A stretch of DNA of 64,000 nucleotides, from positions 17,765 to 81,764 of the forward strand of contig JAZDOG010000056.1 in the NCBI GenBank assembly GCA_043798915.1, read 5' to 3'. The DNA is from Pseudomonadota bacterium. GTDB lineage: Bacteria > UBA10199 > 2-02-FULL-44-16 > JAAZCA01. Positions 27,001 to 33,000 of this stretch are shown here, one piece after another. The stretch's first letter is position 1, and every line of letters begins with the position of its first letter. Made by a program: the position numbers.

Positions 27001-30000
27001 AGACGATGAGGCGTGCACCGCGAATCTTCGCCGCGTCGATTCCGCCTCCCTTCACCGCCGGATCCCAGAGCGCGACGTCGTCGTCGCTCATGAGCAGCGA
27101 TCGCGCGGTGTTTCTCCCAAGGTTCTCGTCGGGGAAAAAGAAGATGCGCTTGCCCTGCCCCGTCGCCCATTCGAACGCGCGCGACGCAGAAGATGAGGTG
27201 CAGACCGCTCCGCCTTTCTTTCCACAGAAGGCCTTGAGCTCCGCGGTCGAATTCATGTACGTGATCGGCAGAAAATCGCCGGCCGTGCCCGCCGCTTCAA
27301 GGGCGCGCCACGCGGCCTCCACCTGCTCGATCGACGCCATGTCTGCCAAGGGACAGCCCGCATCCATGTCGGGCAGGAAAACGCGCTGGCCAGGCCTCGC
27401 CAGAATGACGCTAGCCTCCGCCATGAAGTGCACGCCGCAGAAGACGATCCACTTCGCCTCTGACTCCGCGCCCTCCTTCGCCAGCGCAAAGCTGTCCCCC
27501 TCTATGTCGGCGAAACCGGCCACCTCGTCGCGCTGATAATAGTGGCCGAGGATGAGGAGCTCCTTGCCCATCCGCTCTTTGACAGCGGCGATCCGGCGCC
27601 TGAGTTCGGCTTCATCCATTTCTCGATATTTATCCGGCATCGTTTCATTTATCGGCATTGCGGACACCTCATATTGTGCAATTTTTATTTAGGGGAGCCT
27701 CATCCCTGGAACCCAAGCCGGCTCCCTTAAGGCTATTCATCACGAAAATGGCGGCGGTTTCAACACCTCATTAGACAGGACATCTGTCGGCACAAATCAG
27801 GGGTTTCCCTTCGTCAGCCCCTAAAAAGTTCGTATGCGCAATAATGGAAAATATAATTGCCAAATAATGCATTAATGTATATAATGGATTCCATTATGAC
27901 AAAAAAAATGGTCTCCAATCTCCCCTCCGTGCAGAGGCTCCTGAGCGAACTGGGCGCCAATATCAGACTGGCACGGCTGCGCCGCAGATTTTCGGCGAGC
28001 CTGGTCGCGGAGCGGGCAGGGATATCCCGCCCGACACTGCGGAGCATTGAACGTGGCGAATCGAGTGTAACTCTGGGAGCATACGCGCGCGTCCTGCTGT
28101 GTCTGGGACTGGAGAAAGACTTGAGTTCCATCGCGCGGGATGACGCCTTGGGCCGCAAGATTCAGGACGCCCAACTGCCGCTCAGAGCGAGGGCTCCGCG
28201 CCATCGCGAGGAACACAAATGAAAAAAGAACAGCGGCGCATCGAGGTCTGGGCTCACTGGGCACCTCTGCCCCAGCCCGTTTTTGTGGGCATATTGTATG
28301 CTTCCCCGTCACGGGGAAAGGAGATATTCTCCTTCGAATATTCTCCTGACTGGCTGAAGAACACCTGTGCCCAGAGCTTTGATCCTTCTCTCGAACTCTA
28401 CAAAGGCCTCCAATATGCCCCTCAGGGAAAGGAGAACTTTGGTGTTTTTCTTGATTCTGCGCCCGACCGGTGGGGGCGCATCCTCATGCGCCGGCGTGAA
28501 GCTCAAGCTGCCCGCGAAGAGAAGCGGAAAGAACGCGTCCTCCATGAGTCTGATTATCTGCTGGGTGTCTATGACGGGCATCGCATGGGTGCTTTGCGGT
28601 TTCGCACGGCGTCGGACGGTCCATTCCTGGATGACAACACGGAGCTGGCAGTTCCTCCCTGGACATCCTTGCGCGAATTGGAACATGCGAGTCTGGAGCT
28701 GGAAAAAAACGGCGCTGAGAAGAACCGGGATTACGGCAAATGGCTGAGGATGCTGATGGCGCCCGGCGCCTCGCTGGGTGGTGCCCGCCCAAAAGCGGGT
28801 ATCATAGACGAAAAGGGCGGCCTGTGGATCGCCAAGTTCCCAAGCGCTCACGACGAAGTTGACAGCGGCGCCTGGGAAAAAGTCATCCACAAACTCGCTA
28901 TGCAGTGTCGCATCGAAACTTCAGAATCCTTGTCCCGCACTTTTGGCAGCCGGCATCACACTTTTCTCACCAGACGCTTTGATCGCACAGAGACGCGCGA
29001 GAGAATTCACTTCGCCTCTGCGATGACCCTCCTGCAGCGCTCTGATGGAGATGATGCGTCAACGGGCGCAAGCTACCTCGAACTTGCCGAGTTTATTATC
29101 CGCCAGGGGGCAGAGCCGAATCATGATTTGGAAGAACTTTGGCGCCGCATCATCTTTTTCATCTGTACTTCCAACGCGGATGACCATCTGCGCAATCACG
29201 GATTTTTGCTCTCTCCCACGGGATGGCGCCTATCGCCTGCCTATGATATGAATCCAGTTCCCGCCGCCAATGGGCTTCGGCTGAATATCTCTGAAACGGA
29301 CAACGCTCAAAACCTTGAACTCGCCAGGGAGATCGCCCCTTTTTTTCGGGTAAAGTCCGGGAGAGTCACGGAAATCATCAAGCAAGTCACCACTCAAGTG
29401 CGAAGCTGGCGCAAAATCGCGAAGACCCTTCGAATTTCTGCCGGGGAAATCGACCGCATGGCGCGCGCCTTTCGTATTGCTGAGGAAGTTTAGCAGTGGT
29501 CAGGACCTGATCATTCTCAGAAAATCATCTTCAGATATGATCTTTACCTTGCCGCCAGCGGCGGCGAGTTTCTTGGCCTTGTCGAGCTTCGAGCCGGCGC
29601 CACCTTCGGCACCCACCACGAGATAATCGAGCGTCTTCGTCACCGATTGCGCGGCATCGCCGCCCTTCTCCTCGACTAGTTTCTGCGCCTCCGACCTCTC
29701 CATCGATTCCAGGCTCCCTGTGAAGAGGAACGACTTGCCGGCGAGCGAACCCCGCTGAACCTTGGCAGCGCTCTTTGCTACCGTCACGTGCTTCAGGAGC
29801 CTGTCGATCAGGCGCCGCTTTGCCTTCAGCCCCAGGACGACCTCATGCGCGATGACCTCGCCGAACGTGTGGATCTCCGAGAGTTCATCCTCGGTGAGCG
29901 ACATCACCTTTTCGAGCGAGCCGTACTTTTCAAGGATGCCGGCCGCATGTTTTCCGAGCTCGCGTATTCCAAGGCCCTGAAGAAAGGCGCCGAGCGGCAT

Positions 30001-33000
30001 CCGTTTTTTAGCGGCGACGTTGGCGAGGAGCTTCTCCGCAAGAGTGTCGCCCATCCGCTCGAGCCCCAGGAGCTCGTCCTTCGTGATCTCATAGAGCTCC
30101 GAAGGGTCCGTCACGATGCCGCTCTCATAGAGCCTGGCGAGAAGCTTTTCCCCGAAGCCGTCTATGCCGGCGGTCTTCACAAAATGAGAAAGTTCGCCTA
30201 TTTTTTTCTGCACACACTTTTTTGGGTTAGTGCAGTAAAGAGAGTCTTCTCTGAGTTCCGTGGGAGCACCGCAAGAAGGACACGTTTTTGGAATTGCAAC
30301 TGGTCTACCACCATGCTGAACAACTTCCTCAACATTAGGTATTACGCCACCTCTGCGCATCATCACAATCTTGTCGTCAATTCCAACTCCTAGCTTATTC
30401 AATATGCCAACATTGTGAAGCGAGGCTCTTGTGACAGTCGCCCCCGAAAGCTTAACGGGTTTCACAATAGCCACTGGCGTTATAACCCCTGTTCTCGCGA
30501 CACTCCAGACAACATTAACAAGCCTAGTTGCTCCTGATTCACCCTGGTATTTGTACGCTATTGCCCACTTAGGATGATGTGCAGTGGAACCCAAGCGGGT
30601 CTGTTCAGAAACGTGATTGGCTTTAAACACAACACCGTCTGTCTCAAAATCGTTCTTGTTGCGCTTATTAAGAAAATCCTCATATGCTTTTTGCAACTCA
30701 TCACTATTAATTAAAACGGTGTCGACGACATGAAATTTGTTATTTGTCAAAGCTTTTCTTTTTTCAATTTCAGTTTGTACCTTAGTTCGCAATAAATCAT
30801 ATGCGAGAAATTTGAGTTTATATTCTCCTGTTTTCTTTGGATCCTTCTGTTTTATTGCTCCGGCGGCCAGATTCCTTGGGTTGGCAAAATCTTGTTGATA
30901 TCGTTTAAAGACACTGAGCGGCATATACACTTCGCCGCGGACTTCGACATTTTTCATATTTACCGTTTTTGGAATTGAGCTTATCTCTTTAATGTTTTCG
31001 GTAATATCCTCGCCTTCAACTCCATCACCCCTCGTAACTGCCTGAACAAGCTTCCCATCTTCATCGTACTTTATTGATACCGCACAACCATCAATCTTTG
31101 GAGAAGCTATAATGCTACCGAGTATCTTGGAGACCCAATCACTTATAGTATTTTCATCATAGCACTTATCAAGAGAAAGCATTGGTTGTTCATGACGAAC
31201 GCTAGTCGGAATTTTTGTACCACTCCACAATTCCAACTGTCCTTTTATCTCCGGAACATCCGAAGGTATTTCTTTCAGCACAGGAGAATCGGGCTTGCGC
31301 CTCTTGAGCTCTTCCACGAGGCGGTCGAACTCGTAGTCTTCGATCTCGCGCACATGCTTCACGAAGTAGAGGCGGTTGTGCCGGCTGACCTCGGCCTCGA
31401 GTTCCTCCACCGACATCTTTTCCCACGCGCCCTTGCCCATGATTTCGCTTTTCTTTCCGCCTGCCGCCTGATAAAAAGCCCTCATAATCTAGCAAATAAT
31501 CTTTTAATATCAAGGAGTAATATAAACCATGGCCACCCAGACATTCACGCTCGAAAATGGCATGCAGGTCATCCTCGAAGAGAATCACGCCGCAAAGGTG
31601 GTTTCGTTCAACGCGCTGGTGAAGGTGGGCAGCGCAAACGAGACCGACAAGGAGGCCGGGATCTGCCACGTCATCGAGCACATGCTCTTCAAGGGCACGC
31701 CCACGCGCCCCGCCGGCACGATCGCAAGGGACGTGGAGGCCGCCGGCGGCGAGATCAACGCCTACACATCCATCGACCAGACGGTGTTCTACATAAACAT
31801 GGCGACCCGCTTCGCCGACCGCGGGCTCTCGATCCTTGCCGATGCGGTCCTCAACCCGCTCTTCGACGCTGAGGAACTCGAGCGCGAGAAAGAGGTGATA
31901 CTCGAGGAGATCCGCCGCGAAAATGACAACCCGGGCAGGATGGCGACCGAACATCTCTTTCATACGGCGTTTGCGACCCACACGTACGGCCGCCCGATCA
32001 TCGGCTTTCCGAATACGGTCAAGTCGTTCACGCGGGCCGAGATCCTCGATTTTTATCGCCGGTGGTATTCGCCGCGCAATATCGTCTTCATAGCGGTGGG
32101 GGATTTTGAAACCGGGAAAGCACTCGCCGACATCCGCGCTCAATTTGCCCCCGCGAGAGGCTCAGAGGCGCCCTCCGGCGTCGCCGTTCCCGAGCCGCCG
32201 CAGACGGGGTTCAGGCTGATGGTGAAGCCTATGAACATACAGAGCGCGTACCTCTCGCTAGGCTTTCACATCCCCGAGATCACGCACGCGGACATCCCGG
32301 CGCTCGACGCGCTCTCGCATATCATGGGCGGCGCAGATTCATCGAGGCTCGAGCAGGAGATAAAAGAGAAGCAGCGCCTCGTGCACAACATCTATTCGTA
32401 CGCATTCACGCCGAAGGATCCCGGGCTCCTCGTGGTCGGTGCGATGCTCGCGGACCGCGACGTCGAAAAAGCGATCAAGGCGATCCGGCGAGAGGTCGAT
32501 CGGCTCAAGGAAGAGACCGTCGGCTCCGAGGAGCTCTCCAGAGCCAAGCTCAACATCCGCTCAAACGAGATATACGAGAAGGAGACGGTGGGCGGCCAGG
32601 CCGGCAAGCTCGCCTACTTCCTCGCCACAGCCGGAAACTATGAATTTGAAAAACGCTACTACCAGATGCTCTCCGACGTAGGCATCCAGACGGTGAGAGA
32701 GGCCGCGGAGCGCTATTTGAGCTTCGACAACTGCACCGCTGTGCTGCTCGTGCCGGAGGGTTCGGCGTGGGTGAAGTCAAAGGCGCCCCTCGAGCGCGCG
32801 CTCGCTCCGTCGAAAAAACTTAAGGTCGCAGCTGCGGCGCGGGCGGTGCCTAAACCGGAAAAGATTCGCCTGAAAAACGGCGCGACGATGATAGTGATCG
32901 AGAACCACAATCTCCCGCTCGTCGCGATGTGCGCCGCCGTGCCAGGCGGCACGCGATTCGAGACCCGGAAGAACAACGGCATTTCCGGACTTCTGTCGCG

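Follow-up and report, generated by a model that had tools for sequence, protein, structure and literature searches.

Mosaic alleles of penA and pbp2x arise by transformation from congeneric donors, at DNA divergence of up to ~23%, and in the case of phage 21 a segment of icd is supplied by a mobile element. Related cases have been described in the cyanobacterial psbA and psbD genes, where Sullivan et al. 2006 report intragenic recombination between phages and hosts (PMC1484495), and in icd, which becomes chimeric upon excision of e14, according to the account in PMC13626634. Homology-facilitated illegitimate recombination is treated in PMC6382021, which gives for B. subtilis a logarithmic drop in transformation up to 15% divergence. 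Here, we analyzed ligA, the gene for the NAD-dependent DNA ligase, for which no mosaic was found in the open-access literature. The gene lies in a 64,000-nt window (contig JAZDOG010000056.1, positions 17,765–81,764) of the genome, denoted G000, of an uncultured bacterium; coordinates are those of the window, and codons are counted on the 661-aa open reading frame (Table 1).

Table 1. Features of the ligA locus in window coordinates
Feature	Coordinates	Strand	Basis and remarks
ligA ORF, NAD-dependent DNA ligase	29500..31485	-	661 aa; TIGR00575 565 bits (cut-off 444.45); Pfam domains; AlphaFold2 mean pLDDT 88
Probable ligA start, second Met (codon 16)	31440	-	gives the 646-aa form
Host-type 5′ part, domain Ia, codons 16–65	31291..31440	-	GC3 0.90; nearest N-segment relatives f1-type, weak support
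Foreign low-GC tract, codons 66–435 (Ia linker, adenylation domain, OB fold, zinc finger)	30181..31290	-	GC3 ~0.35; changepoints, trees, topology tests
12-codon insert in the Ia/adenylation linker, codons 78–89 as aligned	31219..31254	-	alignment; common only to G000 and G006
Conserved heptapeptide KGQLELW (G006: KGQLEMW), non-canonical, clamp-motif-like	31225..31245	-	consensus comparison
Catalytic Lys130, motif I (KxDG), intact within the foreign tract	31096..31098	-	aligned to Lys of the KLDG motif in E. coli LigA (2OWO)
Zinc finger C402/C405/C418/C424	30214..30282	-	foreign in G000 by codon usage; G006 tract stops just before
Host-type 3′ part, HhH and BRCT domains, codons 436–661	29500..30180	-	GC3 0.73–0.83; C-flank tree: G000 in f1 (87/92)
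M16 peptidase, conserved upstream neighbour	31529..34081	+	synteny
nadA, conserved downstream neighbour	26588..27667	-	synteny
HTH + HipA-like pair between ligA and nadA	27857..29493	+	seen only in G000

The protein retains the complete LigA domain order, namely, Ia, adenylation (KxDG), OB, Cys4 zinc finger, HhH and BRCT, and would be expected to seal nicks like any other NAD-dependent ligase. No other TIGR00575 match exists in the genome, as an earlier note on this DNA had stated, and tblastn with four LigA proteins found no second ligA piece in G000; ligA contains no Pfam domain indicative of an intein, endonuclease or intron, and no Rfam match was obtained in 27000–33000. The conserved neighbours, M16 peptidase and nadA, show that ligA occupies its ancestral locus. 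The HTH + HipA-like pair, seen only in G000, is inserted between ligA and nadA.

The third-position GC content (GC3) of ligA drops from 0.90 in codons 16–65 to 0.31–0.41 in codons 66–435 and returns to 0.73–0.83 in codons 436–660, and codon-usage changepoints delimit a foreign tract from codon 66 (95% 62–80) to codon 435 (434–442), with a log-likelihood ratio of 166. Counted from the second Met, this tract spans codons 51–420, close to the ~58–415 of the earlier note, whose contrast in GC3 (0.37 in the core, 0.78 in the flanks) was also reproduced (~0.35 versus ~0.8). The note further held that, among 523 long genes, ligA has the largest internal range; in our analysis, it ranks highest among the 1,084 ORFs with 300 aa or more (log-likelihood ratio 60.9; 99th percentile 35.3) and highest again (61.1) in a scan for internal dips across 1,299 ORFs with 250 aa or more, in which a restriction-modification fusion came next (40.4). 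No dip is present in the ligA of six high-GC f1 relatives. At the margins of the tract (codons 68 and 74; 426, 430 and 433), f1-type residues are combined with foreign codons, so that either the junctions are uncertain by 10–20 codons or the donor itself was mosaic or ancestral there. Two other genes considered as mosaics, mutS and hutU, were rejected: their GC3 dips are found order-wide at fixed positions.

Phylogenetic analysis places the core and the flanks discordantly. The core tree unites G000 with G006, a genome of another family (98/98 with the insert columns excluded, compared to 100/97 before), and this clade holds under LG+C20; its position inside family f3, initially 97/97, is recovered by FastTree (0.999) but is lower under the mixture model (79/91). 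The C-flank tree puts G006 with its genus (100/94) and G000 in f1 (87/92); in the flank tree of the earlier note, G006 paired with its congener G007 to the exclusion of G000. In fixed-backbone AU tests, the core rejects the vertical (flank) tree (dlnL 81, p-AU 3e-8), as well as the vertical placement of G000 alone (p 4e-4) or of G006 alone (p 0.017), and the flanks reject the core tree (p 3e-4). With G006 held at its vertical place, however, p-SH was 0.14. With a free backbone, the flanks do reject the core tree, but vertical placement of the core is not rejected (p 0.131, 0.127, 0.079). Both core branches are long, and attraction between them may contribute to some extent to this grouping.

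As previously noted, G006 shows the same dip (GC3 0.33–0.47 versus 0.58–0.76 outside), which ranks second among 193 ORFs, behind an intein-bearing gene, in the examined 339 kb of this ~1.7-Mb genome, and, self matches aside, G006 gives the top match to the core (70%) but not to the C-flank (61% versus 70% for the best match). The earlier wording allowed the G006 core to be read as the donor family's own allele, which our analysis contradicts: dN between G006 and G007 is 0.25 in the core and 0.09–0.15 in the flanks, so that the core is foreign to G006 as well. The two cores are saturated at silent sites (pS 0.77, dN 0.21), and therefore neither is a recent copy of the other. Yet, GC3 is still 0.36 in the G000 core and 0.41 in the G006 core, against host medians of 0.76 and 0.73, whereas cores diverged to this extent within a high-GC host would have reached the GC3 of that host. 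Thus, we infer two separate acquisitions, with G006 as the second recipient. The right junctions differ (~codon 401 in G006, 435 in G000); by residue type, both left junctions can be placed at codons 75–77, directly before the insert, and codon usage puts that of G000 at 66. No further low-GC3 gene is common to G000 and the examined 339 kb of G006. The direction of transfer, which the earlier note left unrooted, is now clear insofar as both hosts are recipients.

Among the evidence that does not depend on trees, the insert shared at the left junction is the strongest, and nothing argues better against an assembly chimera. These 12 residues, including KGQLE[L/M]W, occur in G000 and G006 only (2 of the 73 genomes examined) and are absent from the other 71; the same two account for all occurrences among 220 parsed proteins, and neither 45 further parsed proteins nor 65 viral loci have the insert. 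The DNA is identical at 20 of 21 bases between the two genomes and is present in only these 2 of 93 genomes. A DNA element was considered and rejected, as the base matches are equally high at other conserved motifs, which argues for conservation at the protein level; of the 9 positions that are identical in the 21-residue linker, 6 belong to KGQLE-W. In the AlphaFold2 model, the linker loop (residues 60–77 of the 646-aa form) has pLDDT <50, a value that the shallow alignment there also lowers. The insert would most likely serve as a docking motif, with the beta-clamp as the leading, albeit tentative, candidate for its partner. Compared to the canonical consensus Q-phi-x-[L/M]-[F/L], QLEL and QLEM agree at Gln1, at the aliphatic position 2 and at Leu/Met 4, but the Phe/Leu/Ile expected at position 5 or 6 is missing, with Trp at 5 and Ser or Lys at 6. 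In the E. coli tests described in PMC11139829, Trp at position 5 weakens clamp binding. The clamp-like motifs of G000 itself include GQVRLF in DnaE and QLDIF in XseA. Selection on the insert seems plausible, because it was taken up in both events even though a stretch of better homology was available immediately 3′.

The donor is best read as a lineage of low GC and considerable age that branches at the base of f3 and carried the insert. The earlier attribution to another family of the order stands to the extent that an f3-related core is joined in frame to f1-type flanks in the sole ligA; the source, however, is no sampled f3 genome but an unsampled lineage at the base of this family. A protein collection, searched among forms of up to 1,157 aa for the near-length core, shorter forms and the C-flank, contained no donor. 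Nor did IMG/VR, where a single protein plus the insert pattern returned nothing and a two-sequence alignment retrieved 65 loci, none with the insert; JGI metagenomes (no match to the insert pattern; 6 loci, none with the insert); phage and plasmid records (37–39% at best); or the ESM Atlas (LigA clusters only). Across 185,579 species genomes, the insert pattern, which in all scans demanded an exact 10-residue spacing that variants could escape, gave five matches, comprising the G006 ligA, two unrelated frames and two without parsed assignment, but no donor. The whole donor gene was found in none of the collections searched, the best match to each core being the other recipient, at 70%; the two recipients would thus reveal a lineage known only from its remnants in others. 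Viral contigs encode this LigA subfamily at 45–51% identity, and codon usage does not separate cellular from mobile donors. Unsampled low-GC cells were probably the source, with a virus or other mobile element as a realistic possibility. It is also conceivable, if rather doubtful, that an unsampled low-GC phage pool took ligA from an early f3 ancestor, evolved the docking peptide (probably for the clamp) and repeatedly wrote peptide and core into hosts of different families, where selection kept them; if true, viruses would have upgraded an essential replication enzyme of their hosts at the level of domains.

On balance, two real in-frame replacements by homeologous recombination, tolerated as the joints fall at domain boundaries, appear to be the probable explanation. 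In G000, a 1.1-kb stretch that begins in the Ia linker and includes the zinc finger would have been replaced in frame by its homologue from the low-GC donor lineage, with the chromosomal ligA kept in place; in G006, in a separate event, a similar stretch of ~1.0 kb would have come from another member of this lineage. The DNA could have entered naked or phage-borne, and the competence genes comEC, comM and dprA are present. RecA-type homeologous or homology-facilitated illegitimate recombination might then have joined host and donor ligA, which differ at roughly 35–45% of bases. This divergence, set against the 15% over which transformation drops in B. subtilis, and the presence of mutS and mutL count against the reading. 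Recombinants may have survived because the left joint falls within the flexible linker of Ia and the right joint at a domain boundary, either OB/Zn or Zn/HhH.

Alternatively, a site-specific element could have acted as e14 and phage 21 do at icd, integrating at the Ser-Asp codons of the linker, supplying a replacement 3′ part of ligA and disappearing later, when it recombined with the host segment that it had displaced; the left junction would then be constant and the right one variable. The residue-type placement of both left junctions, the unlike right junctions and the low GC fit such an element, and the chimeric icd formed upon e14 excision offers a precedent (PMC13626634). However, neither an integrase nor flanking repeats nor a displaced piece of ligA was found; only 3 of the 86 genomes of the phylum with a match have two, which cover non-overlapping parts of the query and are not duplicates; and by codon usage the G000 junction is at 66, not 76. 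In known cases, moreover, the replacement arms are far shorter than 1.7 kb, and we regard this route as unlikely. We also see little chance for a single event, in which the core passed straight from the G006 lineage (f3) to G000 or in reverse: the mutual best matches, sister cores and common insert are all compatible with it, but it is largely excluded by silent-site saturation in cores with unameliorated codons, and the G006 core is displaced from its own genus.

Both assemblies are fragmented and incomplete, and reads from a co-occurring low-GC relative might have been joined into the gene at both ends. Such a chimera is nevertheless very unlikely: two assemblies would have to contain four misjoins between them, all in frame, and each would have to have picked up a donor of which no complete gene was found anywhere; ligA genes from different families share exact matches of 10–29 nt, and in only 9 of 141 pairs do these reach 21 nt or more; and synteny is intact on both sides. 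Hardly credible is the proposal that no transfer occurred and that a local AT shift with fast evolution in both genes was turned into a clade by long-branch attraction. AT-rich patches at fixed positions are indeed known from the order, and the free-backbone AU tests are not significant, but the patches in hutU and mutS span 30–50 codons, occur in most genomes and carry a DNA motif that is lacking in both ligA genes, whereas the ligA dip spans 370 codons and is absent from the high-GC relatives; convergence could not yield the same insert in the same place, and the core clade is stable under LG+C20.

If the two replacements are real, then on two occasions a single-copy replication gene accepted a segment the size of whole domains despite divergence at the family level, well past the reported divergence limits of transformation, and about half of ligA, a usual phylogenomic marker, carries a different history. 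The pair also bears on the question of whether exchanges of this kind can be driven by a short motif that is acquired with them. Compared to E. coli LigA (2OWO), which has the same domain set and catalytic residues, the enzyme described here adds a 12-residue linker peptide and combines domains of two origins, and the right junction of G006 falls near the A/B split of the T5-type split ligase PDB 9HU3 (query 390/396). As in known clamp motifs, the insert presents Gln-Leu-acidic-Leu/Met in a flexible loop of a putative clamp client, with Trp rather than Phe/Leu at position 5, but, in contrast to the H. pylori LigA site QEFIRSLF (PMC4976356, PMC11139829), it sits between Ia and the adenylation domain and not near BRCT. 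Like icd, as far as PMC13626634 describes it, ligA is a housekeeping gene with a segment possibly derived from a mobile element, yet in icd the piece is short and C-terminal, with a known att site and integrase, neither of which was found in ligA. With psbA and psbD, ligA shares patchy G+C in a core gene and exchange with a lower-GC gene pool, in both directions in the case described in PMC1484495; there, however, phage donors are in hand, whereas for ligA there are none, the partners differ at ~30–40% of residues and whole domains of a single-copy replication gene are involved. Finally, like penA and pbp2x, ligA is an in-frame mosaic of an essential gene in an organism with competence genes, but the exchange spans a family-level gap, and at one joint the lengths differ. 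Essential genes may thus be able to exchange whole domains over far larger distances than recombination normally permits.

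The ligA gene of G000, the genome under study, encodes its NAD-dependent DNA ligase and is, with high probability, a genuine mosaic. As the earlier note had held, the gene is single: TIGR00575 matches ligA alone, and a search of the assembly for a second ligA fragment returned none. The low-GC core claimed there was likewise confirmed, with GC3 of 0.90 over codons 16-65, 0.31-0.41 over codons 66-435 and 0.73-0.83 beyond, an internal dip stronger than in any other of the 1,299 ORFs with 250 aa or more; a codon-usage model bounds the tract at codons 66 (62-80) and 435 (434-442). 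The mosaic protein keeps the catalytic lysine, the zinc cysteines, and the HhH and BRCT domains, and is predicted to fold as LigA (structure model, mean pLDDT 88). No tract-marking repeats, integrase or RNA family were found at the tract. Relatives of G000 carry the database labels ‘Deltaproteobacteria bacterium’ or ‘bacterium’; we take their common phylum to be GTDB UBA10199.

Features at the ligA locus and elsewhere (coordinates without prefix are window positions; the window is G000:C94:17765-81764)
Feature	Coordinates	Strand	Remarks
ligA, NAD-dependent DNA ligase	29500-31485	minus	661 aa; probable start 31440
HTH and HipA-like pair	27857-29493	plus	separates ligA from nadA and converges on ligA; not seen at the related loci compared
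Histidine phosphatase gene, missing	31440-31528		most relatives have it between the M16 and ligA genes
Low-GC island in nuo operon	47766-53195	minus	separates nuoE from nuoF; darT-like, darG and DUF5131 genes flanked by two Schlafen AlbA_2/HATPase/HTH genes
hutU	G000:C97:10124-11776 (L201)		AT-rich patch, codons 184-216
mutS	G000:C28:29066-31675 (L200)		AT-rich patch, codons 34-84
Restriction-modification fusion gene	L203:522-3581 (G000:C76)		low-GC3 internal half, codons 485-985; likely a methylase/specificity swap
Exonuclease VII large subunit	L204:502-1953 (G000:C57)		N-terminal tail with QLDIF, a clamp-motif-like peptide
SpoVR-like gene of G006	L255:2928-5648	minus	low-GC intein and LAGLIDADG domain

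The earlier note had also cited a related genome, G006, as a parallel. Its low-GC tract (codons 55 (39-59) to 383 (380-388) by G006 numbering, ~70-401 by that of G000) is indeed present, and the two cores are sisters (98/98; LG+C20, 47 rows, insert columns omitted); what did not survive is G006 as the native bearer of such a core, which is foreign to its own genus, dN against its congener G007 being 0.25 in the core vs 0.09 and 0.15 in the flanks. G006, too, is a recipient. The C-flank tree puts it within its genus group (100/94) and G000 within family f1 (87/92). On a fixed backbone built without either genome, each part rejects the position of the other, with dlnL 81 and p-AU 3e-8 for the core placed like the flanks and p 3e-4 for the flanks placed like the core; when one genome alone is kept vertical, the core gives p 4e-4 for G000 and p-AU 0.017, p-SH 0.14 for G006. 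With a free backbone, vertical placement of the core is not rejected (p 0.131, 0.127, 0.079), which counts against transfer. Among 61 placements of the core pair, the best six lie around the base of family f3, within 0.3 log units; the tests tolerate a position sister to f3 as a whole (p 0.11) but not one on the f1 stem (p 0.02).

Immediately past the left junction, both ligases carry 12 extra residues with KGQLE[L/M]W. This insert occurs in only these two of 73 genomes (74 loci; 73 of 86 phylum genomes with a match), in no other protein among 220 + 45 parsed and in 0 of 65 viral loci, and it amounts to tree-independent proof that the cores share an origin. The heptapeptide holds six of the nine identities of the 21-residue linker even though the cores have reached silent-site saturation, a sign that purifying selection acts on the peptide. 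Other lineage-specific insertions of ~13-40 residues are found in the adenylation domain of LigA of the same subfamily (L006 in G007, P0242, P0251, P0255, and L087 in G022), that of P0251 resembling a translated palindromic repeat element; hutU of G006 has an insertion of ~30 residues.

The insert lies in a low-confidence loop of the predicted structure and agrees with the beta-clamp motif at positions 1, 2 and 4; among 50,136 12-mers of the G000 proteome, 17 have a motif of this kind that ends in Phe or Trp, and the DnaN pocket appears largely conserved by comparison with a list of pocket residues. Position 5, Trp, is off consensus and, according to an extract of PMC11139829, reduced clamp binding in E. 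coli tests. The insert is not a canonical member, and it is conceivable, if rather doubtful, that it acts like a clamp motif. In the H. pylori ligase, one of the closest known parallels, the clamp site lies near BRCT (extract of PMC4976356). Second, divergent dnaN matches exist in the genomes G019 (L177, L197) and G017 (L191, L198); L177, only 34% identical to G000 DnaN, may be contamination or mobile.

The cores themselves are far apart (pS 0.77, dN 0.21), with saturated silent sites, and have GC3 of 0.36 and 0.41 vs host medians of 0.76 and 0.73 in G000 and G006, respectively. Since saturated divergence inside the present hosts would have brought host GC3, we infer that the cores diverged in a low-GC setting and then reached the two genomes separately and recently. 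No whole gene of the donor lineage was found in protein, viral, metagenome, species-genome and phage/plasmid collections or the ESM Atlas; two recipients without a donor would be odd for ordinary cells, which may indicate selection or a mobile pool. LigA of the same subfamily occurs on viral contigs, 45-51% identical and lacking the insert; low-GC f3 cells also exist (G005 and G008, GC3 ~0.3), and codon usage does not separate a cellular from a mobile donor. On IMG/VR contigs L100-L105 and L164 (27-316 kb), LigA is full-length, 45-51% identical in the core and in some cases of GC3 0.1-0.25; in two that were checked, it lies near primase, tail, endolysin or head-closure genes.

That an assembly chimera explains the mosaic is very improbable, as it would require four in-frame misjoins plus an unseen donor caught twice, and cross-family exact ligA matches reach 21 nt in just 9 of 141 pairs. 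Nor is the tract a positional AT patch: the patches of hutU and mutS, inside coding regions at positions constant across the order, are short and common to most genomes, unlike the ligA tract. In G000, hutU has a run of 32 A/T-ending codons, the next longest among 894 ORFs being 13. Both patches bear the near-palindrome TTARA-N6-TYTAA, which is preserved at synonymous sites, is present at 9 places in G000 and may be an internal promoter or a binding site for a protein.

The ligA locus is ancestral: a gene order of M16 peptidase, (histidine phosphatase), ligA, nadA, radical SAM recurs among the relatives' loci compared. The G000 neighbours have their best matches in f1 genomes, and the G006 neighbours share 76-80% identity with the genus group of G006. 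The 15 codons ahead of the G000 ligA start resemble the stretch preceding the phosphatase gene in the related genome G013, which suggests that the G000 phosphatase was lost by clean deletion. In the nuo island, DarT scores 94 bits, below the NCBIfam cut-off of 150 and above that of Pfam.

The left junction falls within the Ia linker in both genomes. Residue types at codons 68 and 74 are host-like in both, which allows a shared left joint at 75-77; G000 codons are foreign from 66 on (8/11 A/T-ending vs 1-3/11 in six high-GC relatives). The right junction lies at the OB/zinc boundary in G006 and, in G000, at that between zinc finger and HhH; there, G000 residues 426-433 are of f1 type but encoded by foreign codons. 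Such margins are most simply read as ancestral residues retained from a deep donor; prior mosaicism of the donor would fit as well.

G000 encodes comEC, comM and dprA, as well as mutS and mutL. We favour DNA entry followed by homeologous recombination, which would have been anchored at conserved motifs, with survivors presumably filtered to joints at domain boundaries. In B. subtilis, according to an extract of PMC6382021, transformation drops logarithmically up to 15% divergence and thereafter depends on homology-facilitated illegitimate recombination, so that swaps of the ligA type should be very rare. That two occurred nonetheless suggests selection.

The ligA case is stranger than first described, with parallel domain-sized swaps, an unseen donor and a conserved insert as its mark. 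No report of a mosaic ligA was found in the open-access literature searched. Transformation mosaics are one of the closest known parallels. Among the closest are also, as far as extracts of the sources go, the phage-host mosaics of psbA/psbD (PMC1484495) and the icd/e14 chimeras (PMC13626634).
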